Source: Betaproteobacteria bacterium
GTDB lineage: Bacteria; Pseudomonadota; Gammaproteobacteria; Burkholderiales; SG8-41
Assembly (NCBI GenBank): GCA_900299145.1
Contig: OMIN01000098.1
Location: 6,081-70,080, forward strand
Direction: 5' to 3'
Length of the DNA stretch: 64,000 nt
Part shown: piece after piece, positions 2,307 through 48,617 of the stretch
Layout of the letters: each line of letters opens with the position of its first letter
Numbering within the stretch: position 1 is the first letter of the stretch
Translations under genes and position numbers: made by a program
Notes under the pieces: model-generated
The model's input: the letters and a program-made list of their open reading frames with translations, nothing else
Database searches by the model: none
Told to the model about the DNA's origin: nothing

Positions 2307-2912
2307 ATGCGCGCCATGAAATATTTTGTGGCGGCGTGGGTGGCGGTCTTATTGCTCTCAGCTTGCGGCCCGCAACCATCGGGCGGCGTGAAATTCCAGA
2401 ACACCGATGTCACCGGCGCCGATTTCGGCAAGGGTTTCGCGCTGACCGATCACACCGGCAAGCCGCGCACGCTGGCGGATTTCAAGGGTAAGCTGGTGGT
2501 GATGTTTTTCGGCTATACGCAATGCCCCGACGTGTGTCCGACCACACTCGCTGAAATGGCCAAGGTCATCAAGGAACTCGGTCCCGACGGCGACAAAGTT
2601 CAGGTGCTGTTCGTTACCATCGATCCAGAACGCGATACGAAAGACCTTTTAAAACAATATGTTACGGCATTTCATCCCGGCTTCCTCGGCCTGGCCGGCG
2701 ACATGGAAGCCACCGTGCGCGCGGCCAAGGAATTCAAGGTTTACGTGCAAAAGCAGCAGCCCAAAACACCTGGCGGCAGCTACAGCGTGGATCACTCGGC
2801 GGGGACGTTCATCCTCGACGGGCAAGGCCGGCTGCGCCTGTTCGTGAACCACGGCGCGCCCGCCGCTTCGCTTTTGGCTGATATTCGCACGCTGCTGAAA
2901 CAGGCGTCGTGA
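2307..2912 (+). CDS. SCO1/SenC family copper chaperone
   Basis: CPDVCP motif in a thioredoxin-like fold, with a signal/lipoprotein-like N-terminus (LLLSACG). Confidence 0.9.
   Translation: MRAMKYFVAAWVAVLLLSACGPQPSGGVKFQNTDVTGADFGKGFALTDHTGKPRTLADFKGKLVVMFFGYTQCPDVCPTTLAEMAKVIKELGPDGDKVQVLFVTIDPERDTKDLLKQYVTAFHPGFLGLAGDMEATVRAAKEFKVYVQKQQPKTPGGSYSVDHSAGTFILDGQGRLRLFVNHGAPAASLLADIRTLLKQAS
2649..2665 (+). repeat. AT-rich dispersed element copy, variant core, inside the SCO gene
   Basis: TTAAAACAATATGTTAC encodes LLKQYVT with all-AT-rich codons. It is closest to the copy at 25649 (AAAACAATTAGTTAC). Confidence 0.55.
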
Positions 2913-3886
2913 TCCGCGCGAGCCTGCTGCGTTGTTTGGGGGCGGGCGTCGCGCTGGTGGCCGTGTGCGCGTCGGCGCAATCGACATACACGGGCTATCC
3001 CAACAAGCCCATTCGCTTCATCTCACCGTTTCCCGCAGGCGGTCCGGTGGACGCCGTGGCACGTTTGATGGCGCCGCGCTTAAGTGACGTGTTCAAACAA
3101 ACCGTGGTGGTCGATAACCGCCCCGGCGCTGTCGGCATGATCGGCATTGAGGCCTGTGTGCGCGCCGCGCCCGATGGTTACACGCTGATGATCGTCTCCG
3201 GCAGCTATGCTTCCAGTGCCGCGGTGAATCAGCTTTCCTATCACCCAATCAATGACGTTACGCCAATTTCCATGCTCGGCCACACGCCGCATCTAGTGAC
3301 GGTACATGCGTCGCTGCCGGTGGCGAGCATCAAGGAATTGATTGTCTACGACAAGGCGAATCCCGGCAAAATCAATTATGGTTCGTCCGGCACCGGCGGC
3401 AGCGTGCATCTGGCGACGGAACTCTTTAACCAGATGGCGGGCACGCGGCTCGCGCATGTACCGTACAAAGGGCAGGGGCCGGTGCTCAATGATTTGCTCG
3501 GCGGGCAAATTCAGCTTTTTATCGGCAGCCCGATCATCACCCAGCCGCACGTCAAGGCCAACCGGCTACGCGCACTAGCGGTGAGCAGCGCGAAGCGTAC
3601 CGCGGCGATGCCGGATATTCCCACAGTGGCCGAAACCGTGCCCGGCTACGACACGGTGAGCTGGCAGGCAATACTGGGGCCGCGCGCCTTGCCGCGTGAT
3701 ATCACGGCACGCTGGAACAGCGAAGTCGACCGCATACTGCAAATGCCGGACTTCAAGGCGCGCCTTGCTGCTGACGGCATGGAAATGGTGGGCGGGCCGC
3801 CATCACACTTTCTCGAAGTGCTCAAACGTGACGTGGCGCGCTGGCAGAGCGTGGTGAAAATCGCTGGTATCAAGCCCGGCGCGTGA
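2909..3886 (+). CDS. Bug family tripartite tricarboxylate transporter substrate-binding protein (TctC-like)
   Basis: Signal peptide followed by YPNKPIRFISPFPAGGPVD and VPYKGQGP, both hallmark Bug/TctC motifs. Confidence 0.9.
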   Translation: MIRASLLRCLGAGVALVAVCASAQSTYTGYPNKPIRFISPFPAGGPVDAVARLMAPRLSDVFKQTVVVDNRPGAVGMIGIEACVRAAPDGYTLMIVSGSYASSAAVNQLSYHPINDVTPISMLGHTPHLVTVHASLPVASIKELIVYDKANPGKINYGSSGTGGSVHLATELFNQMAGTRLAHVPYKGQGPVLNDLLGGQIQLFIGSPIITQPHVKANRLRALAVSSAKRTAAMPDIPTVAETVPGYDTVSWQAILGPRALPRDITARWNSEVDRILQMPDFKARLAADGMEMVGGPPSHFLEVLKRDVARWQSVVKIAGIKPGA

Positions 3887-3975
3887 CGACCCATTTTCAT
3901 CGCCGGGTTCCCGCACCGGCAGCCTGCTGGTAAGCTAGGCAATCAATCATCTTGGCACAAAAATCTGGCGCAAAA

Positions 3976-6589: not shown

Positions 6590-6601
6590 CAGCAGTGCGT
6601 C

Positions 6602-6631
6602 TAAAAATATCCATTAAAACAAATAGTTACG
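6602..6631 (+). repeat. AT-rich dispersed element copy
   Basis: TAAAAATATCCATTAAAACAAATAGTTACG, intergenic, ~50 nt upstream of the Bug gene start at 6684. Confidence 0.9.
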
Positions 6632-6683
6632 ATTGAACAGCATTGTAAATGCCATGGCGGTTGTTACCTCAGTCGAGGCCTAC

Positions 6684-7664: not shown

Positions 7665-7669
7665 CCGAA

Positions 7670-8794: not shown

Positions 8795-8806
8795 GCCGTC
8801 AGCACA

Positions 8807-10907: not shown

Positions 10908-10942
10908 GAAAATATTATATCGAATAAAAACAAACACTTACG
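10908..10942 (+). repeat. AT-rich dispersed element copy
   Basis: GAAAATATTATATCGAATAAAAACAAACACTTACG, located in the 675-bp non-coding gap. Confidence 0.85.
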
Positions 10943-13556: not shown

Positions 13557-13934
13557 ATGCCCAATCCCGACGATCTGAAATATCACGCTGAACACACCTG
13601 GATTAAAGCGGAGCCCGGCGGCACGTACCTCGTGGGCATTACCGGTCACGCGCAAGAGCAATTGGGCGACGTGGTTTATGTGCAGCAACCGGACATTGGC
13701 GCAACCATCAAGCAGGGTGAGCCGTGCGGCGTGATCGAGTCGGTTAAAACCGCCGCCGATGTGCACGCGCCGGCCTCCGGCGTGGTGGTAGCGGTGAACG
13801 CGGCGCTTGCGGATGCGCCGGAAACGGTCAACAGCGATCCCTACGGCGCGTGGCTGTTTCGCATCACCTTGAGCGACGCGGCGGAGCTGGCGGCGCTGAT
13901 GGATGCGGCAGCCTATGAAAAAGCGCTTGGTTAA
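13557..13934 (+). CDS. gcvH: glycine cleavage system H protein (lipoyl carrier)
   Basis: ESVKTAADVHAP lipoyl-lysine motif. No gcvT or gcvP is adjacent. Confidence 0.9.
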   Translation: MPNPDDLKYHAEHTWIKAEPGGTYLVGITGHAQEQLGDVVYVQQPDIGATIKQGEPCGVIESVKTAADVHAPASGVVVAVNAALADAPETVNSDPYGAWLFRITLSDAAELAALMDAAAYEKALG

Positions 13935-13960
13935 AATAGTCAATAAAAACAGATAGTTAT
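13931..13960 (+). repeat. AT-rich dispersed element copy
   Basis: TTAAAATAGTCAATAAAAACAGATAGTTAT. It starts on the gcvH stop codon and ends 23 nt before the dgkA start. Confidence 0.9.
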
Positions 13961-16006: not shown

Positions 16007-16036
16007 GTAACTATTTGTTTTTATTAGATTTTTTAA
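16007..16036 (-). repeat. AT-rich dispersed element copy
   Basis: Minus-strand reading is TTAAAAAATCTAATAAAAACAAATAGTTAC. Located between the kinase and acyltransferase genes. Confidence 0.9.
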
Positions 16037-16851
16037 CACCGGCTTTTCATTACCTGCCGTTGACCGCGCCCACGCCTCGCCGCCCGCCTGCCGCGCCTCC
16101 ACACACGCCGCGCGTGGTTCGCGTCTGGCGCATTACGCGTGTGCTTACGCACCTCGCCCAGGCGGCGGTGGTGGCGGGCTTGGGTTATCCACTGATGACG
16201 CCGGCGCGCCGCCGCCTCGCGCTGCAACGCTGGTCAGCGAAGCTGCTGCGGCTGCTGGCGGCAAATCTTACCGTGCATGGCACGCCGCCCCGCGAGGGCG
16301 ACACCTATCTCCTCGCGGCGAATCACGTGTCGTGGCTGGACATTTTCGTTATTAACGCAGCAGCGCCCACCCGCTTTGTCGCCAAGTCGGAGATTCGCGG
16401 CTGGCCGCTGATCGGTTGGTTGTGCGTGAAAGCTGAAACGCTTTTTATCGAACGCGACCGCCGGCGAGATCTCGCTAGGCTGGATGATGTCATTGCCACG
16501 GCGCTTAACGCTGGCGCTGGTATGGGGGTGTTTCTCGAAGGTACCACCACCGACGGCCACGAGGTGCTGCCGTTTCACAGCTCGCTGCTGCGTCCGGCGC
16601 AACAGGCGGCGGCAAATATTGTGCCGGTAGCGATCCAGTATCGCCGCAGCGACGGCTCAATCTGTGTCGAAGCCGCCTTTGACGGCGACAAAACCCTGCT
16701 CGACACCATCCGCCTCATGCTCACGCAGCATGAAATTCACACGGCTGTGCATTTTCTGCCGCCAGTGGACGGGCAGGGCGTGCATCGCAAAGTGCTGGCG
16801 CGGCAAACGCGCGAGGTGATTGTGCGGACGCTGTATCCGGAAAAGGCTTAG
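16015..16851 (+). CDS. lysophospholipid (1-acyl-sn-glycerol-3-phosphate) acyltransferase family protein
   Basis: NHVSWLDI (HX4D) and FLEGTTT motifs. The start codon is uncertain: the TTG at 16015 lies inside the AT-rich element. Confidence 0.8.
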   Translation: MFLLDFLTPAFHYLPLTAPTPRRPPAAPPHTPRVVRVWRITRVLTHLAQAAVVAGLGYPLMTPARRRLALQRWSAKLLRLLAANLTVHGTPPREGDTYLLAANHVSWLDIFVINAAAPTRFVAKSEIRGWPLIGWLCVKAETLFIERDRRRDLARLDDVIATALNAGAGMGVFLEGTTTDGHEVLPFHSSLLRPAQQAAANIVPVAIQYRRSDGSICVEAAFDGDKTLLDTIRLMLTQHEIHTAVHFLPPVDGQGVHRKVLARQTREVIVRTLYPEKA

Positions 16852-17669
16852 TCGCTGTCCGCCTGCTCACAAGCACACTCAAAGACCCGTCGGTCTTCCA
16901 GCCGCATGGCGGTGAGTTTTCGCCCCCAAACGCAGCCGGAATCCAGCCCGATCACGTCGGGCCGTAGCAGCACGCCGAGCGAAGCCCAGTGGCCGAACAG
17001 CACCGGCATGTCGGCGCTGGCGCGTCCCGGCACGTCATACCATGGCATGTAGCCCGCGGGCATGTTCGCCGGCGCGAGCTTATGGGTGAATTCCATGTTG
17101 CCTTCTGCGGTGCACAGGCGCATGCGCGTCATGGCGTTGACGATCACGCGCAGCCGGTCGTCACCGGTAAGGTCTTCGCGCCACGCACTGGGTTTATTGC
17201 CATAGAGGGGCCGCAGGAAGGCATCGGGGTCATCGCCGCGCAGTACGGTTTCGACCTCGCGCGCAAGGGCGGCTGCCTTGTCGATGGACCATTGCGGCAG
17301 CAGGCCTGCGTGAACCATGGCGTAACCCAACGTGCGATCGACGTGCATCATTTTCTGCTGGCGCAGCCAATGCAGAAGTTCGTCGCGATCAGGCGCGTCG
17401 AGCACGTCTTTTAACGTGTCGCCCGGATATTGCTTGGTGTAGCCGCTGGCGGCGACCAGCAAATGCAGATCGTGATTACCGAGGATCGGTATGGCGGCGT
17501 CACCGAGTTTGATGATAAAGCGCAGTGTTTCCGCTGACTGCGGCCCGCGATTTACCAGGTCGCCGACCAGCCAGACCTTATCACGTGGCGGATCGAATTT
17601 GACCTGATCGAGCAGGCGCTTTAACGGATCGCAGCAGCCTTGCAGATCGCCAATGGCGTAAGTGGCCAT
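16848..17669 (-). CDS. apaH: bis(5'-nucleosyl)-tetraphosphatase (symmetrical)
   Basis: MATYAIGDLQGC, GDLVNRGP and GNHD metallophosphatase motifs. Confidence 0.92.
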   Translation of the reverse strand: MATYAIGDLQGCCDPLKRLLDQVKFDPPRDKVWLVGDLVNRGPQSAETLRFIIKLGDAAIPILGNHDLHLLVAASGYTKQYPGDTLKDVLDAPDRDELLHWLRQQKMMHVDRTLGYAMVHAGLLPQWSIDKAAALAREVETVLRGDDPDAFLRPLYGNKPSAWREDLTGDDRLRVIVNAMTRMRLCTAEGNMEFTHKLAPANMPAGYMPWYDVPGRASADMPVLFGHWASLGVLLRPDVIGLDSGCVWGRKLTAMRLEDRRVFECACEQADSD

Positions 17670-17685
17670 ACAAAAATTACCCAAC

Positions 17686-17714
17686 AAAAAAGGCGCGGAG
17701 CGCCGCGCCTTTTT
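17686..17714. terminator. bidirectional intrinsic terminator-like hairpin
   Basis: AAAAA-AGGCGCGG-AGCG-CCGCGCCT-TTTT, located 20 nt downstream of the minus-strand cytochrome c gene. Confidence 0.75.
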
Positions 17715-17732
17715 GCATGGCCGGCATGATGG

Positions 17733-18287
17733 CTACTTCGATTGCGACACCATGTATTCGACAGCGGCTTTCACGTCGTCATCCGCCAGACTGGCATTAC
17801 CGCCCTTGGGCGGCATCGCGTTCTTGCCCTTGAGCGCGCTCGCTTGCAGCGCGGCGACACCCGCACCCAGGCGCGGCGCCCACGCGGCTTTGTCACCGAC
17901 CTTGGGTGCGCCCGCAACACCGGCGGCGTGACACGCCTGGCAGCTTGCATCGTAAACGGATTTGCCGTTGCCGCCTGCGGGCTTGGCGCCGCCTTCCGTA
18001 GCGGCGGGAGCAGCGGCCACCGGCGCGGGGGCGGGTACCAGTGGCGACGGACCTTTTTCAATATCCGGCGTGCTGCCGACGGGCTTGATGCGTTCAGCAG
18101 TAGCCTTGTCGGACATGGTCGGCGTCGAGCGCGGCTTTTCGCCGCCCACAACGAAATGAATAATGGTGAATATCGCGGCGATGGGGATCACGAATGCCAG
18201 CACGACGACGACGATCAATTGCGTCGGCGTCTTGATAAAGCCGGTGTCGCTGCCGGCGTCGGAATGGCTGGAATGGGCGTCGCTCAT
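17733..18287 (-). CDS. membrane-anchored c-type cytochrome (cytochrome c5-like)
   Basis: N-terminal TM anchor, an Ala/Pro linker and a C-terminal CQACH heme-binding motif. Confidence 0.85.
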   Translation of the reverse strand: MSDAHSSHSDAGSDTGFIKTPTQLIVVVVLAFVIPIAAIFTIIHFVVGGEKPRSTPTMSDKATAERIKPVGSTPDIEKGPSPLVPAPAPVAAAPAATEGGAKPAGGNGKSVYDASCQACHAAGVAGAPKVGDKAAWAPRLGAGVAALQASALKGKNAMPPKGGNASLADDDVKAAVEYMVSQSK

Positions 18288-18448
18288 GGGGGGTCCCGGT
18301 GGATCTCGATGGTTTCTGTAGTCCCGCTCGCCGCGCAGGCGCCGGGCAGGGTTTATGCACTCAAGTTAAGCATTATAACGCGCACCACCGTCGTGGTAAA
18401 AGGCCGCACGGCGCGCGCGTGCTAAAATCGGCGCTCTTGTGCAAGCAC

Positions 18449-18525
18449 GCGCCCGTAGCTCAGCTGGATAGAGTACTGCCCTCCGAAGGCAGGGGTCGGA
18501 CGTTCGAATCGTCTCGGGCGCGCCA
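18449..18525 (+). tRNA. tRNA-Arg (anticodon CCG)
   Basis: GCGCCCGTAGCTCAGCTGGATAGAGT...CTGCC-CTCCGAA-GGCAG...GGTTCGAAT-type T arm with encoded CCA. The cloverleaf folds by eye. Confidence 0.9.
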
Positions 18526-18547
18526 GATTTTCACGTTGCCGCGGTTG

Positions 18548-19282
18548 ATGGGCGCACCACCGGTGGTCTCCTTAGTGCCATATCCCGACGTGACTTCCGC
18601 CAAATCCACACCTACGTCCCGAGCAAGGCCCCCGGCACGGGTAATCGCCTGGCTGCTGGCTTTGGTGATAGCCGTGGCGTTCGCGCAGGAAGCGGTAACC
18701 ATCACCGATGCGCAAATCGCCAAACTTGCCACTTCGTTCGGCCCGGTGGCGAAGGAGCGTCTCACCAACTGGCGCACGCTGATGAACAACCCGAAAAACA
18801 AGGCGTTGAGTGATCGGCAGAAGCTCGAGCTGGTGAATGATTTCATGAATCAAACGCCGTTCAAGAGCGACAAGGAGCATTGGGGCAAGGAAGATTACTG
18901 GGCGACGCCGATTGAGTTTTTGTCCACCAACGGCGGCGATTGCGAGGATTTTTCCATTGCCAAGTATTTCACCTTGCGCGCGCTTGGCGTGCCCGACGAT
19001 AAATTGCAGATCACTTACGTCAAGGAAATCAAGGTGTTTAACGAGGCGCACATGGTGCTCGCGTATTTCGCCACACCCGACGCGGAACCGGTGATTCTCG
19101 ACAACATCAACAAGACGATTCAGCCGGCGTCCAATCGCGGCGATCTGGTGCCGGTGTATAGCTTTAACGGGTCGGGCCTGTGGCTCGCCAAGCAGCAGCA
19201 GGGGCGCGGCCAGTCGGCGGGCAGCTCGGATCGCATCGGGCACTGGAAGGATTTGCAGAACCGGATGAAGGGTGCGACGTGA
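18548..19282 (+). CDS. LapG-like periplasmic transglutaminase-like cysteine protease (BTLCP family)
   Basis: GGDCEDFSIAKYFTL catalytic-Cys context and HMVLAY...DN. The upstream part of the 327-aa ORF overlaps the tRNA and is discarded. Confidence 0.8.
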   Translation: MGAPPVVSLVPYPDVTSAKSTPTSRARPPARVIAWLLALVIAVAFAQEAVTITDAQIAKLATSFGPVAKERLTNWRTLMNNPKNKALSDRQKLELVNDFMNQTPFKSDKEHWGKEDYWATPIEFLSTNGGDCEDFSIAKYFTLRALGVPDDKLQITYVKEIKVFNEAHMVLAYFATPDAEPVILDNINKTIQPASNRGDLVPVYSFNGSGLWLAKQQQGRGQSAGSSDRIGHWKDLQNRMKGAT

Positions 19283-19291: not shown

Positions 19292-19318
19292 GTAACTATC
19301 TGTTTTTAAATAATAATT
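19292..19318 (-). repeat. AT-rich dispersed element copy
   Basis: Minus-strand reading is AATTATTATTTAAAAACAGATAGTTAC. Located between the LapG-like and LapD-like genes. Confidence 0.9.
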
Positions 19319-19336
19319 GCTACAGCGGATGACGCC

Positions 19337-21458: not shown

Positions 21459-21490
21459 ATAAAAAATAATGCATTAAAACAAATAGTTAT
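21459..21490 (+). repeat. AT-rich dispersed element copy
   Basis: ATAAAAAATAATGCATTAAAACAAATAGTTAT. It ends 15 nt before the GTG start at 21505. Confidence 0.9.
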
Positions 21491-22113: not shown

Positions 22114-23754
22114 TTGAGTTCCCTCGAATCCCGTTACGATGCCGTAATCATCGGCGGCGGCCACAACGGCCTCACCTGCGCCTGTTACCTCGCCGCCGCG
22201 GGACTGAAAGTGCGCATTGTCGAGCGGTATACCGAAGTCGGCGGCGCCGCGATTACCGAGGAATTTCACCCCGGCTTTCGCAATTCCGCAGCAGCCTACA
22301 CGGTAAGCCTGCTCAATCCGAAGGTCATTACCGATCTGAATCTGGCCGAACACGGCTTGCGTGTTGTCGAGCGCCCGCTGTCGAATTTTTTGCCGTTGCC
22401 CGGCGGCGGCGCGTTGCGCGTAGGGCCAACGCTGGCGGCAACCCAGGCCGAAGTGGCACGTTTTTCCCGGCGCGATGCCGAACGCCTGCCGCAGTATTTC
22501 GACACATTGGAGCGGGCGGCCGGCGTGGTGCGCGATATGTTGCTGGAGACGCCGCCCAACGTCGGCGATTCGCTGGATTTCATGGATACGTTGAGCATCA
22601 CGCAGCGCATGCTCAAAGTTTCGCGGCGGGCGAAAAACCTCGACATGCCGACCCGCCGCGACGTGCTGGATTTTTTTACCAAGAGCGCGGGCGACGTGCT
22701 CGATGCGTGGTTCGAGTCCGATCCGATCAAGGCGGTGTTCGGCTTTGACGCCATTGTCGGCCACTTCGCCAGCCCTTATACGCCTGGCTCGGCTTATGTG
22801 CTGCTGCACCACGTGATCGGCGAAGTGAACGGCCATCGCGGCGTGTGGGGCCACGCCATCGGCGGCATGGGCGCGATCACGCAAGCCATGCGCAGAGAGG
22901 CCGAACGGCGCGGCGTGGAAATCACCACCGGCAGTGAGGTCGCGCAGGTGGTGGCCGACATGCGCGGCGTGCAGGGCGTGCAGCTTGCCGACGGGCGCGT
23001 GATCGATGCGCGCTGCGTGGTGTCTGGCGTGAATCCGAAACTGCTTTACACCAAACTGGTGCCGCAACACGCGCTCGACGAGGAATCTCTGCGCCGCATG
23101 CGCAATTACAAATGCGCGTCGGGCACGTTCCGCATGAACGTCGCGCTTTCGGAATTGCCGGATTTCACCTGCGCACCCGGCAAACACGCGCAGGATCACC
23201 ACAAATCTGGGATCATTCTCGCGCCCTCCTTGCATTACATGGAGCAGGCGTATTTCGACGCACGCACGCTGGGCTGCTCGCGCAAGCCGATAATCGAAAT
23301 TCTGATTCCTTCCACAGTTGACGGCAGCCTTGCACCGCCGGGCCGGCATGTGGCAAGCCTTTTCTGCCAGCACTTTAATCCTGTGCTGCCCAACGGATTG
23401 AATTGGAATGACATTCGGGAACCGGCAGCCGATCTGATTATCGACGCCGTTACGCAGTACGCGCCTAACTTCAAGGCCAGCGTTCTCGGCCGTACGGTGT
23501 TGTCACCCCTGGATCTGGAAAGCCGGTTTGGGCTTACCGGCGGCGACATTTTTCACGGCACGCTCACGCTCGATCAACTGTGGAGTGCTCGCCCGCTGCT
23601 TGGCCATGGCGCCTATCGCGGGCCGCTGGCGGGGCTCTACATGTGCGGATCAGGTGCGCATCCCGGCGGCGGCGTGACGGGCGCGCCGGGACACAACGCG
23701 GCGCGCGAAATCATCACCGATTTCAAGCGTGGGCGGGTGACGAGGAAATCTTGA
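22114..23754 (+). CDS. NAD(P)/FAD-dependent oxidoreductase (phytoene desaturase-related, COG1233-like)
   Basis: YDAVIIGGGHNGLTCACYLAAAGLKV dinucleotide-binding motif and C-terminal GSGAHPGGGVTG. Confidence 0.85.
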   Translation: MSSLESRYDAVIIGGGHNGLTCACYLAAAGLKVRIVERYTEVGGAAITEEFHPGFRNSAAAYTVSLLNPKVITDLNLAEHGLRVVERPLSNFLPLPGGGALRVGPTLAATQAEVARFSRRDAERLPQYFDTLERAAGVVRDMLLETPPNVGDSLDFMDTLSITQRMLKVSRRAKNLDMPTRRDVLDFFTKSAGDVLDAWFESDPIKAVFGFDAIVGHFASPYTPGSAYVLLHHVIGEVNGHRGVWGHAIGGMGAITQAMRREAERRGVEITTGSEVAQVVADMRGVQGVQLADGRVIDARCVVSGVNPKLLYTKLVPQHALDEESLRRMRNYKCASGTFRMNVALSELPDFTCAPGKHAQDHHKSGIILAPSLHYMEQAYFDARTLGCSRKPIIEILIPSTVDGSLAPPGRHVASLFCQHFNPVLPNGLNWNDIREPAADLIIDAVTQYAPNFKASVLGRTVLSPLDLESRFGLTGGDIFHGTLTLDQLWSARPLLGHGAYRGPLAGLYMCGSGAHPGGGVTGAPGHNAAREIITDFKRGRVTRKS

Positions 23755-23780
23755 AAACATTAATAAAAACAAATACTTAT
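23751..23780 (+). repeat. AT-rich dispersed element copy
   Basis: TTGAAAACATTAATAAAAACAAATACTTAT. It overlaps the upstream stop codon and encodes the n-region of the next gene's lipoprotein signal (MKTLIKTNTYV). Confidence 0.9.
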
Positions 23781-24428: not shown

Positions 24429-25664
24429 GTGAATCGCCCCCGCTCAGCCGTCGCCATGACTTTCGTCATGTGCGTGGCCGAGGCTTTCAGCATGGCTTCG
24501 TTCGCGGCGTATGCGACGTTGTTGCCGTTGTTCCAGAAAGCGTGGGGGCTTTCCAATACCGAGGCGGGGTTGATTGGCGGCATTGCCTTCGCCGGCTACA
24601 TGACGGCGGTGCCGGTGCTTTCCGCGCTGACAGATCGCGTTGACTCACGGCGCATTTATTTTGGTGCGTGTTGTTTGTCGGCGCTGGGTGCGGCAGGCTT
24701 TGCGCTATTTGCGCAGGGCTTGTGGACGGCGCTTTTGTTTCAGTTTGTCATCGGCGCGGGGCTGGGCGGCACGTATATGCCGGGCATGAAAACGCTGACC
24801 GATCCGCTGCAAGGCAGCGCTCAGGCGCGGGCCACGGCGTTTTACGCGGCGTGTTTCGGCGTGGGGTCGAGTCTGTCGATTTTCGCGTCGGGCTGGCTCG
24901 CCGCGAACCACAGTTGGCAGGCGGCGTTTGTGTTCGGCACCGTCGGGCCGCTGATCGCGGCGTCACTGGTGATGCTGCTGATGCCGCCCGGCCACACACG
25001 CAAGGAGAAGGCTGCTACCGCGCTGCTGGATTTCCGCCCGGTGCTCGCCAACCGCGTCACGCGCTATTACATTCTCGGCTACGCGGTGCACAGCTATGAA
25101 CTCTTCACGCAGCGCGCGTGGATGGTGGCGTTCATTGCTTTTTCAGCAACGTTGCAACCGGCGGGAACCGCTGCCGCTGCGCTGAGCGCGGCGACACTGG
25201 CAGCAATCGTCAATTTGCGCGGCCCGCTGATGAGTGTCACCGGCAACGAACTTGCGCTGCGCTTTGGCCGCGAGCGCATTATTTTTGTGTTCATGACGGC
25301 GTCCGGGCTCTTCACTTGCGGCCTCGGGTTTGCCGCCGGGCTGCCTTCCGCAGCGGTGTTCGTGGTGATGTGCGTGCACTACGGCCTGATGCTCGGCGAT
25401 TCGGCGGCACTTACCGCCGGCGCCATCGGCTCAGCGCACGCGGATCAGCGCGGTGCGATGTTGGCGGTGTATTCGTTCATTGGCTTTAGCGCCGCGCTGG
25501 TGGGGACGCTGGTGTTCGGCGTGGTGCTGGATCTTGCCGGCGGCAACCGCAGTACCCAGGCGTGGGTGCTGGCTTATGTCAGCATCGGCATCTTTGGCGT
25601 GTTCGCGCCAGTGGCCCGAGTGCTGCACAAAATCACCAAACGAAAAATCAATGAAAACAATTAG
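24429..25664 (+). CDS. MFS transporter
   Basis: ~12 predicted TM helices. The C-terminal tail ...KITKRKINENN is encoded by the AT-rich element. Confidence 0.8.
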   Translation: MNRPRSAVAMTFVMCVAEAFSMASFAAYATLLPLFQKAWGLSNTEAGLIGGIAFAGYMTAVPVLSALTDRVDSRRIYFGACCLSALGAAGFALFAQGLWTALLFQFVIGAGLGGTYMPGMKTLTDPLQGSAQARATAFYAACFGVGSSLSIFASGWLAANHSWQAAFVFGTVGPLIAASLVMLLMPPGHTRKEKAATALLDFRPVLANRVTRYYILGYAVHSYELFTQRAWMVAFIAFSATLQPAGTAAAALSAATLAAIVNLRGPLMSVTGNELALRFGRERIIFVFMTASGLFTCGLGFAAGLPSAAVFVVMCVHYGLMLGDSAALTAGAIGSAHADQRGAMLAVYSFIGFSAALVGTLVFGVVLDLAGGNRSTQAWVLAYVSIGIFGVFAPVARVLHKITKRKINENN

Positions 25665-25669
25665 TTACG
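25642..25669 (+). repeat. AT-rich dispersed element copy
   Basis: GAAAAATCAATGAAAACAATTAGTTACG, containing the MFS stop codon. The 3' flank GTATTTTGAAAG resembles the flank of the copy at 38853. Confidence 0.85.
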
Positions 25670-27320: not shown

Positions 27321-27695
27321 CTGCGCATTGGCCGCGAGCGCATTATTTTTGTCTTCACGACGGCATCGGGTGTGGCCACCTGCCTACGGGGATTCGCCGC
27401 CGGACTGCCGTCGGCGGTGGTCTTCGCCCTCATGTGCGTGCACTACGATTTGATGCTGGGTGACTCCGCTGCACTGACCGCCGGCGCCATTGGCTCGGCG
27501 CATGCCGATCAACACGGTGCGATGATGGTTGTGTATTCTTTTATTGGTTTCAGTGCCGCGATGGTGGCGCCGCTGGTGTTCGGCACGGTGCCCGATATCG
27601 CCGGCGGCAACCGCAGCACGCTGGCTTGGTTACTGGCTTACGTCAGCATCGGCGTGTTTGGCGCGGCTGCGCCGATGGTTCAAGCACTATATTAA
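27321..27695 (+). pseudogene. duplicated 3' fragment of the MFS transporter gene
   Basis: LRIGRERIIFVFTTASG...AYVSIGVFGAAAP parallels residues LRFGRERIIFVFMTASG...AYVSIGIFGVFAP of the intact gene (24429..25664). By eye, nt identity is roughly 80%. Confidence 0.8.
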
Positions 27696-27721
27696 AAAAT
27701 CCAATAAAAACAAATAGTTAT
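27691..27721 (+). repeat. AT-rich dispersed element copy
   Basis: ATTAAAAAATCCAATAAAAACAAATAGTTAT. It carries the stop codons of both convergent flanking reading frames. Confidence 0.9.
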
Positions 27722-30492: not shown

Positions 30493-32109
30493 CTACATGC
30501 GAAACACGCCAAATCGCGTCGGCTCAATGGGCGCGTGGGCAGCCGCCGCCAAGCCAAGCGCGAGCATGCGGCGCGTGTCCTGCGGCGCGATGATGCCGTC
30601 GTCCCACAGCCGCGCGGTGGCGTAGTAGGCGCTGGACTGGCGTGCGTATTGGTCGAGGATTGGCTGCTTAAACACGGCTTCTTCCTCGGCGCTCCATGTA
30701 GTTACACCGGCCCCCGAGTTTTCGAGCGCGTCGCGTTTTACTTGCGCCAGCACCCCGGCGGCCTGTTCGCCGCCCATCACTGAAATGCGAGCGTTGGGCC
30801 AGCTCCATAAAAAGCGCGGGCTGAAGGCGCGGCCGCACATGCCGTAGTTGCCCGCGCCAAAACTGCCGCCGACGATGACGGTAAATTTCGGCACATTGGC
30901 ACACGCCACCGCCGTCACCATTTTTGCGCCGTCTTTGGCGATGCCGCCGGTTTCGGCCTTTGCGCCGACCATGAAGCCGGTGATGTTCTGCAAAAACACC
31001 AGCGGAATGCCGCGCTGGCAACACAGCTCGACAAAGTGTGCGCCTTTCACCGCCGATTCTGAAAACAGAATGCCGTTGTTGGCGACAATGCCCACCGGCC
31101 AGCCGTCAATGCGCGCAAAGCCGGTGACCAGCGTTGCGCCGTAGCGCGCCTTGAATTCGTCGAACTCGGAACCATCCACCACGCGCGCGATGATTTCGCG
31201 CATGTCGAACATCGCGCGCGGATTCACTGGCACAACGCCGTCGAGCTCGGCGGCATCGAGCAGCGGCTCGCAAGCGGCTTCGCGGCTAATATATAAGTAT
31301 CTGTTTTTATTGATGTTTTTAATGGCGTTTCGCACAAGCTGCAAGGCGTGCGCATCGTTGTCGGCCATGTGATCGGCGACACCCGACAGGCGCGTGTGCA
31401 CGTCCGCGCCACCGAGCGCCTCACTGGTGACCACTTCGCCGGTGGCCGCTTTTACCAGCGGCGGGCCGGCAAGAAAAATCGTTCCCTGATTTTTGACGAT
31501 GATGGCTTCATCACTCATCGCGGGCACATACGCGCCGCCAGCGGTGCACGAGCCCATCACACACGCGATTTGTGCAATGCCCGCGGCCGACATGCGCGCC
31601 TGATTGTAGAAACTGCGGCCGAAGTGCTCGCGGTCCGGAAACACCTCGTCCTGACTCGGCAAATGAGCGCCACCGGAATCGACCAGATAAATGCAAGGTA
31701 AATGATTTTCGTGCGCCACTTCCTGCGCACGCAATTGCTTTTTCACCGTGAGCGGAAAAAACGTGCCGCCCTTCACCGTGGCGTCATTGGCGATGATGAC
31801 GCACGCCGTGCCGCTGACGGTGCCGACACCGGTGATAATGCCCGCAGACGGCACCGGCTCGCCGTAGACCTCGTGCGCGGCGAGCGGCGACAGTTCCAGA
31901 AACGGCGTGCCAGCATCGAGCAAGCCCGCAACACGCTCGCGCGGCAGCATTTTGCCGCGTGATATGTGTCGCGCGCGCGCGGCTTCACCGCCGCCTTGCA
32001 TCGTGTTGGCAGTGATCTGTTCCAGCTGCGCAATGCGTTCACGCATGGCGTCACGCGCGGCGGAGAAATCCGCGCCGGCGGTCTTGAGTTTGCTTTTGAT
32101 GACGGGCAT
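30493..32109 (-). CDS. liuB: methylcrotonyl-CoA carboxylase carboxyltransferase (beta) subunit
   Basis: Collinear along its whole length with LiuB/MccB as I recall it (e.g. [55 protein letters not shown]). Confidence 0.95.
31293..31322 (-). repeat. AT-rich dispersed element copy inside liuB coding sequence
   Basis: Minus-strand reading is TTAAAAACATCAATAAAAACAGATACTTAT. It encodes ...[12 protein letters not shown]... in frame. Confidence 0.9.
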
Positions 32110-32140: not shown

Positions 32141-32644
32141 TCAGTTCTTCGCCAGTTCGGCTTCGTACAGGGCGAGCATGTTGGCGTCGAAGCACGCAAA
32201 AATGATCTTTTCAAAATCGTCGGCGGCCGAACGGCACTCGCGTACAGCGATGGCTACCGCCTCGGCCAGCGGATAGCTATACACACCGCAACTAATTGCA
32301 GGATAAGCTATTGTTTTGATTACATTATTTTTAGCCAACGCGAGCGTTGAGCGATAACACGAAGCCAGCAATTCCGCTTCGCCTGCATGCCCGCCGTGCC
32401 ACACCGGGCCAGGCGTGTGAATGACAAACTTCGCCGGCAAGCGGTAGCCGCGCGTGATTTTTGCCTGCCCGGTTTTGCAGCCGTTCAACGTGCGGCATTC
32501 GGCCAGCAGTTGCGGCCCCGCCGCGCGATGAATCGCGCCGTCGACCCCGCCGCCACCCAGGAGCGATGTGTTGGCGGCATTGACGATGGCGTCGACGTTT
32601 AGGGTGACGATATTGGTTTGCAGGGCGAGCAGTTCAGCAGGCAT
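32141..32644 (-). CDS. macro domain protein (O-acetyl-ADP-ribose deacetylase, YmdB-like)
   Basis: [26 protein letters not shown] and [11 protein letters not shown] motifs. Confidence 0.9.
32303..32334 (-). repeat. AT-rich dispersed element copy inside the macro-domain gene
   Basis: Minus-strand reading is CTAAAAATAATGTAATCAAAACAATAGCTTAT. It shares AAAAATAATG plus the core with the copy at 21459 and encodes [10 protein letters not shown]. Confidence 0.8.
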
Positions 32645-34505: not shown

Positions 34506-34536
34506 AATAAAAAAGTTAGATAAAACAGATGGTTAC
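34504..34536 (+). repeat. AT-rich dispersed element copy
   Basis: ATAATAAAAAAGTTAGATAAAACAGATGGTTAC. It directly abuts the minus-strand NMO start codon. Confidence 0.8.
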
Positions 34537-38854: not shown

Positions 38855-38883
38855 AAAAATAACAATAAAAACAGATATTTACG
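38853..38883 (+). repeat. AT-rich dispersed element copy
   Basis: ACAAAAATAACAATAAAAACAGATATTTACG. It abuts the minus-strand ivd start codon. The 3' flank is TATTTTCAAGG. Confidence 0.9.
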
Positions 38884-44168: not shown

Positions 44169-44227
44169 TCCTTTGCGTTTTGTGGGCCGCGCTTTTGCGC
44201 GGCATCATCGCCACGCGGCGGTGTATT

Positions 44228-44254
44228 GTAACTATTTGTTTTTAAAGGATTATT
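44228..44254 (-). repeat. AT-rich dispersed element copy
   Basis: Minus-strand reading is AATAATCCTTTAAAAACAAATAGTTAC. It ends at the PCuAC start codon. Confidence 0.9.
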
Positions 44255-44728
44255 ATGAAAAGAATCACAGGAGGTTCCCTGCTCGCAGGCTGGCTGATGT
44301 TGGGCGCCGCACATGCGCAGAGTGTGGAGGTGAAAGACGCGTGGATACGCGGCACGGTGCCAGCACAAAAAGTCACCGGTGCGTTCATGGAAATCACCGG
44401 CAAGAGTTCGGTGCGGCTGGTGGGTGCGGCGAGTCCGGCGGCGGGCACGGTGGAAATTCACAATATGACCCTGACCAACGGCGTGATGAAAATGTTCGCG
44501 GTCGATGGGATAGACGTGCAGGCCGGCAAGACGCTCAAGCTCGCGCCCGGTGGCTATCACGTGATGCTGATCGGTTTGAAGCAGCAGATGAAACCCGGCG
44601 ACAAAGTGCCGCTGGATTTGCTGTTGGAGTCCGCCGACAAGAAGCGCGAAACGGTCAGTCTGCAGGTGGAGGTGCGCGACCTTACTACCAGCGCGGGCAG
44701 TGCGGGCAGCCGCGCCAGTCAGCACTAG
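44255..44728 (+). CDS. periplasmic copper chaperone PCu(A)C (DUF461)
   Basis: Signal peptide, then IHNMT...M and GGYHVML copper-ligand motifs. Confidence 0.88.
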   Translation: MKRITGGSLLAGWLMLGAAHAQSVEVKDAWIRGTVPAQKVTGAFMEITGKSSVRLVGAASPAAGTVEIHNMTLTNGVMKMFAVDGIDVQAGKTLKLAPGGYHVMLIGLKQQMKPGDKVPLDLLLESADKKRETVSLQVEVRDLTTSAGSAGSRASQH

Positions 44729-44737
44729 GAGACTGCC

Positions 44738-46885: not shown

Positions 46886-48096
46886 TGCGGCTGCTGTCAG
46901 TGCTGGGTTTGCTGCTGTGCGCCTGCGCGCACGCGCAGCACACCGGCCACGCGCAATCTTCGGGGCCGGCGCGGGTGGAGCTGGCCTCGTCGGCAACCTT
47001 CGATGCCCAGGGTGTGTTGTGGGCGGTACACAAGATCGGCGGCCATGTGATGCTGCGCCGCTCGGCTGATGCCGGAAAAAGCTGGTCGGCGCCCAAACCC
47101 GTCAACGCCGCGCCCGAAGGCATAGGCGCCGAGGGCGATGCGCGGCCGAAAATCGCGGCGGGCACGCGCGGTGAACTCTATGTCACGTGGACGAAGCCTC
47201 TGGCGAAACCGTATACCGGTGAGATCCGTTTCGCGCGTTCGCTGGATGGCGGCGCGAGTTTCAGTGTGCCAATAACGGTGCACGCCGACCGGCAGGAAAT
47301 CACCCATCGCTTCGACGCGCTGACGGTGACGCGCGACGGCAAGCTGTTTGTCGCGTGGATCGACAAGCGCGACATGGACGCTGCCGGTAAGGAGGGTAAG
47401 TATCGGGGCGCAGCGGTGTACTTCGCGGTGTCGGACGACCGCGGCGCGAGCTTTCGCGGTGACTACAAGCTTGCTGATTACAGTTGCGAGTGTTGCCGTA
47501 TCGGCCTGCTGCCGCGCGACGATGGCAGCGTGCTGGCGCTGTGGCGGCATGTGTTCGAGCCGAACGTGCGCGATCACGCGCTGGGCGTGATGTACGCTGA
47601 TGGCCGCGCGGGCACAGTGTGGCGCGCGACGTTTGATGAATGGGCTGTCGACATCTGCCCGCATCACGGCCCGTCACTCGCAGCGGATGAGCGCGGCCGA
47701 TTGCACGCGGTGTGGTTTACGCAAGGCGCCAAACGCAGTGGCGTGTTTTATGGCCGCTTACGTATGAACGGCCAGAGCGGTGAGCCGGGTGTCGATGGCT
47801 TGCGGCCCGTCGGCGACGACACGGCAGCGCACGCCGATGTAGCGGTTAGCGGTAGTACCGTGGTGGTGGCGTGGAAGGCGTTCGACGGCACGCGTTCGCG
47901 GCTGCGCGCGATGGTGTCCGCCGATGGTGGCAACACCTGGCGCGAGCGTGATTTGCGCACCACCAGCGGTGCTTCCGATCAGCCGCGCATGCTGCGGCAT
48001 GGCGCGCGCCTCTTCGCGTTCTGGCATACACAACTGGAGGGCTTTACAGTAACACCGGTAACACCCGTAACGCCCTTGACAACGGTGATGCCATGA
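46879..48096 (+). CDS. BNR/Asp-box repeat (sialidase-fold) protein
   Basis: Four Asp-boxes: SADAGKSW, SLDGGASF, SDDRGASF and SADGGNTW. Confidence 0.8.
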   Translation: MVMRLLSVLGLLLCACAHAQHTGHAQSSGPARVELASSATFDAQGVLWAVHKIGGHVMLRRSADAGKSWSAPKPVNAAPEGIGAEGDARPKIAAGTRGELYVTWTKPLAKPYTGEIRFARSLDGGASFSVPITVHADRQEITHRFDALTVTRDGKLFVAWIDKRDMDAAGKEGKYRGAAVYFAVSDDRGASFRGDYKLADYSCECCRIGLLPRDDGSVLALWRHVFEPNVRDHALGVMYADGRAGTVWRATFDEWAVDICPHHGPSLAADERGRLHAVWFTQGAKRSGVFYGRLRMNGQSGEPGVDGLRPVGDDTAAHADVAVSGSTVVVAWKAFDGTRSRLRAMVSADGGNTWRERDLRTTSGASDQPRMLRHGARLFAFWHTQLEGFTVTPVTPVTPLTTVMP

Positions 48097-48617
48097 ACCG
48101 CAGAAATTTCTTAATAAAAACAAATAGTTATATAACCATGGGCGCGGCGCTTGTACTGGCTTTGCCGGGCGATTGCGCGGCGGCCACGGCCGTTACCGGC
48201 GAGTTGTTGCCGTTCGATGCCAACAGTTTGGCTGCGCTGCGCAAGTCGCACGCGGGTAAACCTTTCGTATTGGCGTTCTGGTCGGTTTATTGCGAGCCGT
48301 GCCGCGACGAAATGGCGGAATGGGACGCGGTCAAGCGCAAGCACCCGGCGCTGGCGCTGGAACTCATTTCCACCGACGCGCCCGCCGACCGCGCGTTGAT
48401 CGATGCCTTTCTGAAAAAATATCCGCCGGGGCCGGTGCGCCAATGGGTGTTTGCCGATGCGGTGAGCGAGCGCGTCCGTTATGCCGTAGACAAATCGTGG
48501 CGCGGTGAACTGCCCAAGAGCTATTTCTTCGATGCCGCGCATCGCGTTGAAGTCAAAAGCGGCAAGGTGGATCGCGCGTGGGTCGACGGCTGGCTCCCGC
48601 GGCAAACGCCGCGTTAG
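48093..48617 (+). CDS. TlpA/redoxin family thiol-disulfide oxidoreductase
   Basis: WSVYCEPC (CxxC) in a thioredoxin fold, with an RRNFL twin-arginine-like signal. Confidence 0.85.
   Translation: MNRRNFLIKTNSYITMGAALVLALPGDCAAATAVTGELLPFDANSLAALRKSHAGKPFVLAFWSVYCEPCRDEMAEWDAVKRKHPALALELISTDAPADRALIDAFLKKYPPGPVRQWVFADAVSERVRYAVDKSWRGELPKSYFFDAAHRVEVKSGKVDRAWVDGWLPRQTPR
48103..48131 (+). repeat. AT-rich dispersed element copy
   Basis: GAAATTTCTTAATAAAAACAAATAGTTAT. It encodes part of the signal peptide MNRRNFLIKTNSYI of the next gene. Confidence 0.9.

Follow-up and report, generated by a model that had tools for sequence, protein, structure and literature searches.

A regularly spaced AT-rich DNA word, probably constrained as DNA, lies in intergenic regions and genes of uncultured Burkholderiales

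The closest described systems are the DNA-uptake sequences of two bacterial families, the USS of the Pasteurellaceae and the DUS of the Neisseriaceae. In Haemophilus influenzae, the USS comprises a 9-nt core, AAGTGCGGT, and two AT-tracts, for a total length of approximately 29 nt. Properties published for USS/DUS include a core combined with rigid or bent AT-tracts (PMC7811141), a gradual origin through point mutation, and notably even spacing (PMC1939737). [quoted passage not shown] Within genes, they are fitted into poorly conserved residues and particular reading frames (PMC2817400). DUES have been reported from the Pasteurellaceae and Neisseriaceae only (bioRxiv 10.1101/2025.10.24.684340). 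Two further classes of repeat provide points of comparison. The cyanobacterial word HIP1 (GCGATCGC) is abundant and lineage-specific, occurs in coding and non-coding DNA, and appears to be under DNA-level selection. REP/BIME elements, which are bound by IHF and gyrase, are GC-rich palindromes that are strictly extragenic and are spread by RAYT transposases.

We analyzed a 64-kb stretch of DNA, referred to here as the window, from an organism that is known from metagenome contigs only. The window has a GC content of 60.5%, and an oriented AT-rich DNA word of approximately 30 bases occurs in it 17 times as a strong copy and twice as a weak one. The word consists of a 17-nt core, RTAASTATYTGTTTTTA, followed by an AT-tract or T-tract half; this 3' part comprises 10-12 nt of AT-rich or T-tract sequence and lies about one helical turn from the core. 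The motif carries approximately 38 bits of information and is long and asymmetric, its T-tracts are phased as is typical of bent DNA, and a YTG is conserved within its core. A search with a 16-nt core, AAGTATTTGTTTTTAT, allowing up to three mismatches yields 15 matches, compared with 0.16 expected in 64 kb, and none of the shuffled sequences gave 15. Likewise, a PWM scan scores 17 copies at 29-54 bits, compared with a top score of 19 bits over 30 shuffles. Over-representation in both orientations, which is a property of DNA-uptake sequences, was found in the window, and five related genomes show a similar density; the counts cover the 64-kb window and the loci of relatives.

We also looked for signs that the copies belong to a known class of element. 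No RNA or ssDNA structure was found at the copies (mean z approximately 0), and Rfam returned no matches across the whole window. Two candidate identities were rejected. Matches to the sigma-70 promoter and intrinsic terminator consensus are no more frequent than in shuffled sequence, with one copy coinciding on the wrong strand, and a MITE/REP-type mobile repeat is contradicted by the lack of gaps at the aligned coding copies, by the lack of visible inverted-repeat ends in the aligned copies, and by a z of approximately 0.

Eleven of the 19 copies lie in the non-coding 12% of the window, and approximately 30% of the copies are coding. The intergenic copies include one between two TctC genes (6603..6630, - strand, PWM score 49 bits, 0 of 28 nt coding), one in the divergent ECH/prmA region (10914..10941, - strand, 43 bits), one between gcvH and a diacylglycerol kinase gene that touches the gcvH stop codon (13933..13960, - strand, 53 bits), one 17 nt upstream of a LapD-like gene (19292..19319, + strand, 44 bits), and one upstream of the open reading frame at 21505-21921 (21463..21490, - strand, 51 bits). 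Two more lie upstream of comM, at 53380..53407 (- strand, 48 bits) and, more weakly, at 53579..53606 (- strand, 31.5 bits). The copy at 27694..27721 (- strand, 54.5 bits) fills the 22-nt gap between convergent genes and holds both of their stop codons. Between the PfkB kinase and acyltransferase genes (16007..16034, + strand, 48 bits), the copy includes a TTG at 16015 that may be the start codon of the acyltransferase gene. Directly upstream of the PCuAC gene (44228..44255, + strand, 48 bits), the 3' half of the copy holds an AAAGGA Shine-Dalgarno sequence, and this copy is kept in the relatives L128 and L129. The copies at 34509..34536 (- strand, 29 bits) and 38855..38882 (- strand, 49 bits) adjoin, in the sense orientation, the ATG of an NMO gene and the start codon of an acyl-CoA dehydrogenase gene, respectively, the latter with no Shine-Dalgarno sequence. 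The acyl-CoA dehydrogenase copy occupies the same position in L087, L088 and L089 and is missing in L090-L092. A within-species SNP falls in the NMO copy at 34519, and a SNP falls in the acyl-CoA dehydrogenase copy at 38874.

The copy at ctaA (333..360, + strand, 32 bits) extends over the Shine-Dalgarno sequence and the beginning of the coding sequence, including the TTG start codon at 341 and the first codons, and it is found at the same place in L093, L095 and L096, with an ATG or TTG within the element (ATG in L093). The first-pass annotation had read GKYLFS here as protein. That reading does not hold: the protein begins with MFS..., and the bases read as GKY belong to the 5' UTR and the Shine-Dalgarno sequence. 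The Pfam COX15-CtaA match begins at residue 14 of the open reading frame. All seven stretches described in that annotation are present where it placed them and read as it had written them.

The remaining copies are read as protein. One lies in a variable linker of liuB (31293..31320, + strand, gene on the - strand, 53.5 bits), one precedes PAISCG in a Macro-domain gene (32303..32330, + strand, gene on the - strand), and one is antisense in SCO, where it encodes LLKQYVT (2638..2665, - strand). Another makes up the C-terminal tail (KINENN) and TAG stop codon of an MFS transporter (25641..25668, - strand, 43 bits). Two signal peptides likewise owe their n-regions to strong copies, as had been noted from the sequence: the MKTLIKTNTYV of a GDSL-lipase lipoprotein (23753..23780, - strand, 51 bits), where the copy also shares bases with the stop codon of the amine oxidase gene upstream, and the FLIKTNSYI of the Tat signal peptide of a TlpA/AhpC-like protein (48104..48131, - strand, 47 bits). 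The lipoprotein copy has an orthologous copy in L089 and is absent in L091. Public gene calls start the Tat-peptide gene at a downstream ATG (P0130, 159 aa); the longer form is supported because MNRRNFLIKTN.Y is conserved in relatives. L128 has this copy (45 bits) and L129 lacks it; the RRxFL....Y alignment is ungapped. By PWM, the liuB, lipoprotein, Tat and MFS copies are strong. The SCO and Macro copies score 16-18 bits and, taken singly, are no better than the best shuffle; comparison with relatives shows both to be genuine, though partial, copies. The word is read in at least four frames over the two strands, in agreement with the earlier statement that several frames are used. Both signal peptides and Macro carry IKTN(S/T)Y, LiuB and the MFS tail carry NKN(R/K)Y or NENN*, SCO uses a third frame, which is antisense, and CtaA uses the sense frame TTG-TTT-TTA.

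To distinguish substitution from insertion, we aligned the coding copies with orthologues. The LiuB alignment is ungapped against 18 distant and 6 close orthologues, and the Macro, SCO and Tat signal peptide alignments are ungapped as well. No insertion or flanking duplication was found in these four alignments, so the earlier view of these copies as substitutions stands. The lipoprotein signal peptide was compared side by side by eye only, and the n-region in L091 is of similar, not identical, length. The claim that protein length is unchanged is borne out for LiuB, Macro, SCO and the Tat signal peptide and fails for the MFS transporter, whose tail does derive from a strong copy and is approximately 5-7 residues longer than in L089 and L091, both of which lack the copy. 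At orthologous sites, PWM scores are graded, with intermediate, partly matching states in relatives: +50 to +28 within the clade and about -30 outside it for LiuB, and +18/+20 versus -8 to -30 for SCO. These comparisons show that point substitutions in sequence already present, rather than insertions, create and maintain the word. Point-substitution origin and the use of permissive residues are also features of DNA-uptake sequences, and both appear here in the ungapped alignments and graded scores. A miniature mobile element of the MITE, REP or RAYT type, or an insertion scar, would account for a repeated sequence of approximately 30 nt that is mostly intergenic, but we give this explanation almost no credence: orthologues without the word align to the coding copies with no gap, partial states occur in relatives, there is no hairpin, no conserved terminal inverted repeat or flanking duplication is seen by eye in the aligned copies, and the open reading frames scanned include neither a transposase nor a RAYT gene. 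Like REP/BIME elements, the word recurs as a short sequence at the borders of many operons and could be a site for architectural proteins. Unlike them, it has no dyad symmetry or structure, lies within genes too, and arises by substitution.

The codons of liuB and SCO bear on what is being conserved. In liuB, the copy is conserved at the DNA level in L087-L091, and its third positions are 65% A/T compared with 23% in the remaining gene. Lys is encoded by AAA in 11 of 11 Lys codons over six lineages and Leu by TTA in 6 of 6, and the residue preceding Lys varies among I, L and V, yet its codon keeps xTA in five of the six lineages. The same columns read GTC GCG AAC CTG AAC CGG in L092, L001 and L003. 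In SCO, relatives have the same LLKQYVT peptide, and five synonymous G/C-to-A/T changes distinguish the window and L093; L094-L103 have GC-ending codons at the site. The Macro copy scores 29 bits in L087 and is absent from L089, L091 and L092, where the codons are GC-ending. Distant orthologues do not share the AT-rich nucleotides; they have GC-rich codons over an equal length. Of the two outcomes that the first-pass annotation had named as refuting its reading, shared AT-rich nucleotides in distant taxa and insertions flanked by duplications, neither occurred. The liuB and SCO codon evidence thus agrees with the earlier proposal of selection on DNA and indicates that the constraint acts on DNA rather than on the peptide. 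The accompanying claim that the codons used are otherwise rare is correct for TTA (2% of Leu) and ATA (10% of Ile) and incorrect for AAA (46%), AAT (35%) and TAT (41%); ACA (8% of Thr) and GTA/GTT are also rare. Altogether, we consider it very probable that this is a protein-read DNA word under DNA-level constraint and not a mobile element. In this respect it resembles HIP1, as a lineage-specific DNA word that is fitted into codons and apparently held by DNA-level selection; unlike HIP1, an 8-nt palindrome that is much denser, it is long, asymmetric, AT-rich and regularly spaced.

These codons also weigh against a signal for gene expression, whether an operator, a promoter or UP element, a terminator or a U-rich translation leader, with the coding copies being conserved peptides. 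Five copies do adjoin start codons in the sense orientation, some of them replacing or containing the Shine-Dalgarno sequence, and the FLIK of the Tat motif and the LLKQYV of SCO are functional peptide motifs. We nevertheless find such a signal highly improbable. Where relatives have the same peptides, they encode them with GC-rich codons. The copies face either way with respect to genes, some lie between convergent genes or in translationally coupled operons, and the liuB copy lies mid-gene and antisense. A regulon would also not be expected to have a site every 3.5 kb near genes that share no function.

We then considered the distribution of the word. Copies are conserved at orthologous sites over a clade of Burkholderiales MAGs and are absent outside it, with no copy in 80 GTDB loci or in the outgroup loci. 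Density is approximately one copy per 3.5 kb in the window and one per 3.5-7 kb in relatives, and this clade of uncultured Burkholderiales keeps the word at roughly one copy per 2-6 kb; the 3' half differs among lineages in a dialect-like manner. Spacing in the window has a CV of 0.37-0.46, compared with 0.92 (P <= 0.0006), and the result also holds against a gene-boundary model. When seven loci are pooled, the 35 gaps have a CV of 0.44 versus 0.88, and 3 gaps are shorter than 1.5 kb where 11.2 are expected. The word is placed in intergenic DNA where possible; where operons offer no space, it lies in permissive coding segments, namely linkers, signal-peptide n-regions, tails and start regions. 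Both orientations are represented, with a -:+ ratio of 14:5 in a window of uniformly positive GC skew. This ratio may point to an orientation bias, for which the orientation of the genes accounts in part. The conservation at orthologous sites, the regular spacing and the mostly intergenic location of the copies had not been remarked on in the first-pass annotation.

Such a distribution could also arise if the copies were regularly spaced sites for a clade-specific intracellular architectural or nucleoid-associated protein, forming a chromosomal 'ruler', which we regard as possible but doubtful. By binding the bent AT-rich word at intervals of ~3.5 kb, this protein would organize loops, supercoil domains, or condensin or gyrase action, and sites would be driven into coding DNA by selection on their spacing. 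The idea is consistent with the highly regular spacing seen in several species, strong positional conservation (including the site within liuB over six lineages), the long asymmetric motif of ~38 bits with phased T-tracts, and the possible 14:5 strand bias, and REP/BIME elements are a precedent for intergenic protein-bound repeats. By inspection, however, the motif fits neither the IHF consensus (WATCAANNNNTTR) nor those of Fis, FNR/CRP, Fur or DnaA. To our knowledge, the sites of nucleoid proteins are degenerate and do not enter conserved genes by synonymous recoding, which also counts against a ruler. Moreover, gain and loss are gradual between close species (Macro and SCO) and SNPs within species fall in copies, which suggests weak per-site constraint; drive or balance fits this better than essential architecture does. 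That the word is not an uptake signal at all but the site of a dedicated intracellular protein, needed every ~3.5 kb, seems to us unlikely.

Other chromosomal DNA-transaction signals, such as a Chi-like recombination or repair hotspot, a replication or segregation signal, or a self-marker for defence, would likewise be over-represented oriented words in the core genome with a mild strand bias. They would also fit the absence of copies from the 5.7-kb low-GC island that splits comM, which holds 0 copies where ~1.6 are expected and so has little power. We judge them improbable, since Chi/KOPS-type words are 8 nt long and strongly replication-skewed, the present word is ~28 nt long and lies on both strands in 64 kb of constant GC skew, and no associated gene was found in the window.

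The remaining reading, and the one toward which we lean without holding it probable, is that the word may be a DNA-uptake signal of the USS/DUS kind. By analogy with those systems, a surface receptor belonging to a type IV pilus competence apparatus would favor fragments bearing the word, and homologous recombination of such fragments would spread and repair copies through molecular drive, whether or not selection also acts. A single copy on each fragment of recombination size would be enough, and copies would therefore be evenly spaced, concentrated in core DNA and missing from newly acquired DNA. The phased T-tracts would be the counterpart of the USS AT-tracts, a rigid or bent site that aids DNA entry into the secretin. 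ComM acts in natural transformation, and comM is present in the lineage and intact in L128; its interruption in this strain counts against this reading.

Like the Pasteurellaceae USS, the word is an oriented sequence of ~30 nt with a specific core followed by helically phased AT-tracts, present in both orientations. It likewise originates by point mutation, is conserved at homologous sites and evenly spaced, and may be missing from genes without homologues; it also uses permissive codons and particular frames and avoids stop-codon frames (PMC1939737, PMC2817400, PMC7811141). It differs in having an unrelated core, in being AT-rich throughout in a 60% GC genome, in a ~3-fold lower density, in being mostly intergenic, and in its bacterial order, and the USS word AAGTGCGGT is not found in the window. 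With the Neisseriaceae DUS (10-12 nt, receptor ComP), it shares family-level specificity with lineage dialects and permissive location with a conserved motif (PMC2397512, PMC3630211). Core-genome enrichment, absence from acquired DNA and recombination-tract spacing may be shared too, the island here having 0 copies for ~1.6 expected. The YTG recalls the CTG core of DUS, which we take as a lead only. The word is longer than DUS, AT-rich, and without inverted pairs as terminators, none of which were seen among the copies; a GCCGTCTGAA-like DUS word has 0 matches in the window. In GTDB terms, the Neisseriaceae fall in the Burkholderiales, the same order as the host.

Several observations count against an uptake signal. 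The core resembles no known USS or DUS, the canonical USS/DUS words are absent (0-2 matches in the window), and the host is a Burkholderiales MAG lineage instead of a Pasteurellaceae or Neisseriaceae host with a USS-type or DUS-dialect sequence. The density (1 per 3.5 kb) is ~3-fold below that of Haemophilus or Neisseria, and the coding share of copies, approximately 30%, is below the 35-65% of DUS/USS. The 14:5 strand ratio also counts against it, to the extent that it reflects an orientation bias of a kind that uptake sequences lack. The likeness to USS/DUS behavior drawn by the first-pass annotation is apt: for those sequences, an origin by point mutation has been reported (PMC1939737), as have permissive sites and absence from acquired DNA (PMC2397512).

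If the copies did serve as a chromosomal ruler, the need for spacing would have to be so strong that even conserved enzymes and signal peptides are recoded to satisfy it. A ruler encoded in sequence would then be, as far as we know, a new kind of bacterial chromosome-organizing system. What this clade carries is a long AT-rich word written into genes by substitution, as uptake sequences are in Haemophilus and Neisseria.

All of the stretches named in the first-pass annotation lie where it placed them and read as first noted, and all carry one common oriented word. A search of the window, which has a GC content of 60.5%, for AAGTATTTGTTTTTAT with at most three mismatches returned 15 sites versus 0.16 expected, and no shuffle reached 15. 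A position weight matrix (PWM) made from these 15 copies was then scanned over the window and over 30 shuffled windows. The window scan yields 17 copies of 29-54 bits and two weak copies, in SCO and Macro, of approximately 16 bits; the top score in the shuffled windows is 19, and their mean maximum is 7.7. The copies at the named sites are confirmed, except that those in SCO and Macro are weak if judged alone. In the consensus, RTAASTATYTGTTTTTA precedes an AT-rich half of one of two forms, TTGATnTTTTT or AAAnnATTATTTT, which places two T-tracts about one helical turn apart. A different word, GCTGGTGG, the E. coli Chi word, occurs at 18 sites in the window (10 on the + strand and 8 on the - strand; for example 1576, 2492, 19405, and 44416) versus 2.9 expected; its excess appears tied to gene orientation and is likely a CTG-GTG codon effect.

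Although 88% of the window is coding, 11 of the 19 copies lie wholly or almost wholly between genes, and the settings include positions upstream of genes, between convergent genes, within translationally coupled operons, and mid-gene. The copies are regularly spaced. The CV of the gaps in the window is 0.37-0.46, compared to 0.92 under random placement (P <= 0.0004), and it is 0.37 compared to 0.78 when sites are drawn randomly from gene boundaries (P = 0.0006). Pooling seven loci, which come from five or more genomes, gives 35 gaps with a mean of 3.5 kb and a CV of 0.44 versus 0.88, with 3 gaps shorter than 1.5 kb versus 11.2 expected. We attribute the existence of coding copies to this regularity: the copies at 27.7 and 34.5 kb are separated by 6.8 kb of closely packed genes, with the liuB copy midway, and the Tat-peptide copy lies within a run of overlapping genes between those at 44.2 and 53.4 kb. 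Such very low spacing variance speaks for the main rival to the reading that we prefer below, namely that the word serves an intracellular architectural protein needing regularly spaced sites, as does a possible strand bias (14 copies on the - strand and 5 on the + strand, the two weak copies included).

The claim that the element is encoded in several reading frames was borne out. On the A-rich strand, the first frame gives IKTN(S/T)Y, found in both signal peptides and in Macro. LiuB reads the second frame, as NKN.Y. The consensus would produce TAG there, a codon that LiuB escapes by taking variants allowed at the S and Y positions of the core and that the MFS gene uses as its stop codon. In the third frame the consensus opens with TAA, so that this frame is usable only by leaving the consensus, and this explains the weak match in SCO. 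On the T-rich strand, TTG-TTT-TTA provides CtaA with its start codon and first residues, the start being TTG in the window (341) and in two relatives (L095 and L096) and ATG in a third (L093). Thus, the peptide GKYLFS originally assigned to ctaA must be divided: the element does encode the start and first residues, but GKY is untranslated leader and Shine-Dalgarno sequence. At 27.7 kb, the two genes of a convergent pair share one copy that holds both of their stop codons, and translation of the acyltransferase may begin at the TTG within the core (GTAAsTAT-TTG-TTTTTA) at 16015. In the acyl-CoA dehydrogenase and NMO genes, coding begins right after a copy, without a Shine-Dalgarno sequence. Public gene calls for the lipase at 23751 disagree (207 or 193 amino acids, the latter 14 codons short), and the TlpA-like protein at 48093 is publicly called at 159 amino acids, 15 codons short, while the longer form, which includes the Tat motif, is conserved in relatives. 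In practical terms, these loci give AT-rich codon runs, odd start regions, and conflicting gene-start calls. Elsewhere, a tRNA-Arg (CCG) gene at 18449-18525 falls within a mechanically listed ORF (18299-19282), so the start of this BTLCP-peptidase gene must be downstream of the tRNA.

A protein identical to the window LiuB was found on metagenome contigs only, and LiuB relatives at 75-88% identity carry Burkholderiales or Betaproteobacteria MAG labels, a placement that the seven TctC (Bug) receptor genes in the window fit. The word is absent from all 80 named-genome loci among the matches listed in a scan of GTDB genomes; these LiuB orthologues, 67-76% identical among the matches listed, served as outgroups, not as sister species. 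DNA of sister species was found by protein search with contig look-up and by a metagenome scan with SCO, and it covers liuB (L087-L092), SCO and ctaA (L093-L103), and the Tat-peptide gene (L128 and L129). Directly 3' of liuB, L087 (11626-11862) and L089 (11614-11850) have a 78-amino-acid gene with only a TfoX_C domain, which the window lacks downstream of liuB; TfoX proteins are competence regulators in other bacteria. The otherwise syntenic liu neighborhood is interrupted by inserted restriction-modification gene pairs, in L089 (1928-3246) a BglII-like endonuclease with an MT-A70 methylase and in L091 (411-2386) a DNA methylase with an EcoO109I-like endonuclease.

Comparison with these sequences bears on the proposal that the word entered proteins by substitution, without a change in length, and not by insertion. 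At LiuB the element is free of gaps relative to 18 distant orthologues and to close relatives, and the three-residue length difference of the window LiuB is located near residue 470, away from the element. The Macro and SCO copies likewise align with their orthologues without a gap, and the Tat signal peptide RRNFLIKTNSYI of the window aligns at equal length to RRTFLMQSMAYA of L129, so a check for insertions with flanking duplications came back gap-free at all four sites. The n-region of the lipoprotein signal peptide is similar in length in L091, which has no copy, as judged by side-by-side comparison and not by alignment. Unchanged length does not extend to the MFS tail, which exceeds that of L089 and L091, both without the copy, by approximately 5-7 residues. 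A mobile element was ruled out by the gap-free coding copies, by aligned copies that show no inverted ends to the eye, and by the lack of a hairpin, and we consider spread by mobile elements to be exceedingly improbable.

The codons themselves show what is being conserved. In liuB, six lineages with 75-100% protein identity share the pattern xTA AAA AAY ATH AAT AAA AAC ... TTA. Although the residue before the lysine varies among I, L, and V, five of the six lineages have a codon ending in TA there; all 11 lysine codons in the element columns are AAA (L091 has asparagine at the second position); and the element leucine is TTA in all six. Third positions are 65% A/T in the element columns versus 23% across the remaining gene, and the outgroups have GTC GCG AAC CTG AAC CGG at these columns. 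The SCO peptide LLKQYVT does not differ between L094-L096, which write it CTG CTG AAG CAA TAC GTC ACC, and the window and L093, which write it CTT TTA AAA CAA TAT GTT ACG through five synonymous G/C-to-A/T changes. PWM scores at orthologous sites are graded from clade members to distant taxa: +50, +40, +40, +38, +38, and +28 inside the clade versus about -30 outside it for LiuB; +18, +29, +9, and +3 versus -23 and -29 for Macro; and +18 and +20 versus -8 to -30 for SCO. Distant orthologues do not share the AT-rich nucleotides; they have GC-rich codons and negative PWM scores. Neither of the two refuting outcomes named in the first-pass annotation was therefore observed. The liuB codons, the synonymous recoding of SCO, and the PWM gradient support the earlier reading of selection on the DNA sequence and show that the constraint acts on DNA. 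The accompanying statement that the element codons are rare is correct for TTA, at 2% of leucine codons in the window, but not for AAA, AAT, or TAT.

Copies are retained between species. Copy density is high in the window, L087-L089, L128, L129, and L093-L096 and low in L090 and L091, and no copy occurs in L092 or the outgroups. The copy at the ctaA start is kept at the orthologous position in L093, L095, and L096, the lipase signal-peptide copy in L089, the PCuAC leader copy in L128 and L129, and the Tat-peptide copy in L128. The copy upstream of the acyl-CoA dehydrogenase gene is kept in L087-L089, and the intergenic DNA around it appears non-alignable when the upstream sequences are placed side by side. 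Deep positional conservation of this kind favors sites for an architectural protein, but the piecemeal gain and loss of the Macro and SCO copies between close species weighs against that explanation, as does polymorphism within the species. Across 21.6 kb, only 18 SNP sites separate the window from same-species metagenome contigs (L081-L086), and two of these sites (34519 and 38874) are inside element cores; the cores make up about 1% of the sequence, giving a rough hand-estimated P of approximately 0.015 with little power. At both core SNPs, read on the element strand, C in the window stands against T in the other strains, which is closer to the consensus. On balance, we find the architectural-protein explanation possible but somewhat less likely than the reading that we prefer.

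Several familiar identities were rejected. An RNA element is contradicted by zero Rfam matches and by the folding of either strand, which is no better than that of shuffled sequence. In a consensus scan, sigma-70-type promoters and intrinsic terminators are at or below expectation, at sites not coinciding with the copies, and expression signals in general seem to us quite improbable. None of the consensus sequences for IHF (WATCAANNNNTTR), Fis, FNR/CRP (TTGAT-N4-ATCAA), Fur, the DnaA box, dif, ter, or parS fits when compared by eye. That the word is some other DNA-transaction signal is unlikely. For the motif string, literature searches gave chance matches alone, all in unrelated organisms; for uptake sequences in Burkholderiales they gave nothing relevant, and a BLAST search of a plasmid collection with the consensus returned only chance matches in AT-rich taxa. 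A scan of viral contigs gave ten matches, each single-copy. Seven of these contigs (L119-L124 and L127; 43-47% GC) have one copy each of the identical 34-mer AGCTAAGTATTTGTTTTTATTGATGTTAATCAAT, which contains the element core followed by the FNR-like palindrome TTGAT-N4-ATCAA, and a GC-rich viral contig (L125) has half an element.

We tentatively rank a DNA-uptake signal similar to USS and DUS first because the properties of the word match those published for uptake sequences. The latter arise gradually by point mutation, without insertion, and are notably evenly spaced (PMC1939737); their spacing corresponds to conversion-tract length, they are enriched in the core genome and absent from recent acquisitions, and they sit in permissive locations while the motif itself is highly conserved (PMC2397512). 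They are fitted into certain reading frames and into residues that are poorly conserved (PMC2817400), and their core is followed by AT-tracts that are rigid or bent (PMC7811141). By this reading, the word, under DNA-level constraint, would be recognized by an uptake receptor, and biased uptake together with homologous recombination would maintain it. 

The comM (yifB/ComM) gene is split in the window (53700-60991) into a ChlI-domain ORF (53700-54347) and an ORF with the Mg_chelatase and C-terminal parts (60059-60991); look-up of the ComM C-terminal ORF returned no record. The halves are separated by approximately 5.7 kb of lower-GC, AT-skewed DNA with a large serine recombinase (54505-56073), a small resolvase (56702-57295), an ORF of unknown function (57875-58714), and an SNase-like nuclease (59556-60062), and comM is intact in L128 (498 amino acids, 16747-18243). 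The segment looks like an island integrated in comM. Its complete lack of word copies agrees with the uptake reading, with only about 1.6 copies expected there, and the interruption of comM in the window strain stands beside that reading as a limit.

Sequence-specific DNA uptake and uptake sequences are documented in Pasteurellaceae and Neisseriaceae only (bioRxiv 10.1101/2025.10.24.684340). Unlike USS and DUS, to which it is unrelated in sequence, the word in the window is AT-rich in a GC-rich genome, lower in density, and more regularly spaced. We place it among the DNA words kept genome-wide through constraint on the DNA itself, perhaps as a member of the uptake-sequence family. If it is an architectural site, then a need for DNA spacing can override codon usage and shape the protein sequence of conserved enzymes. 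If it is an uptake signal, it would be the third such system and of independent origin, belonging to environmental Burkholderiales and built on an AT-rich word in a GC-rich genome, and it would offer a fresh case for weighing molecular drive against selection in the spread of such words, as well as a new receptor to find.
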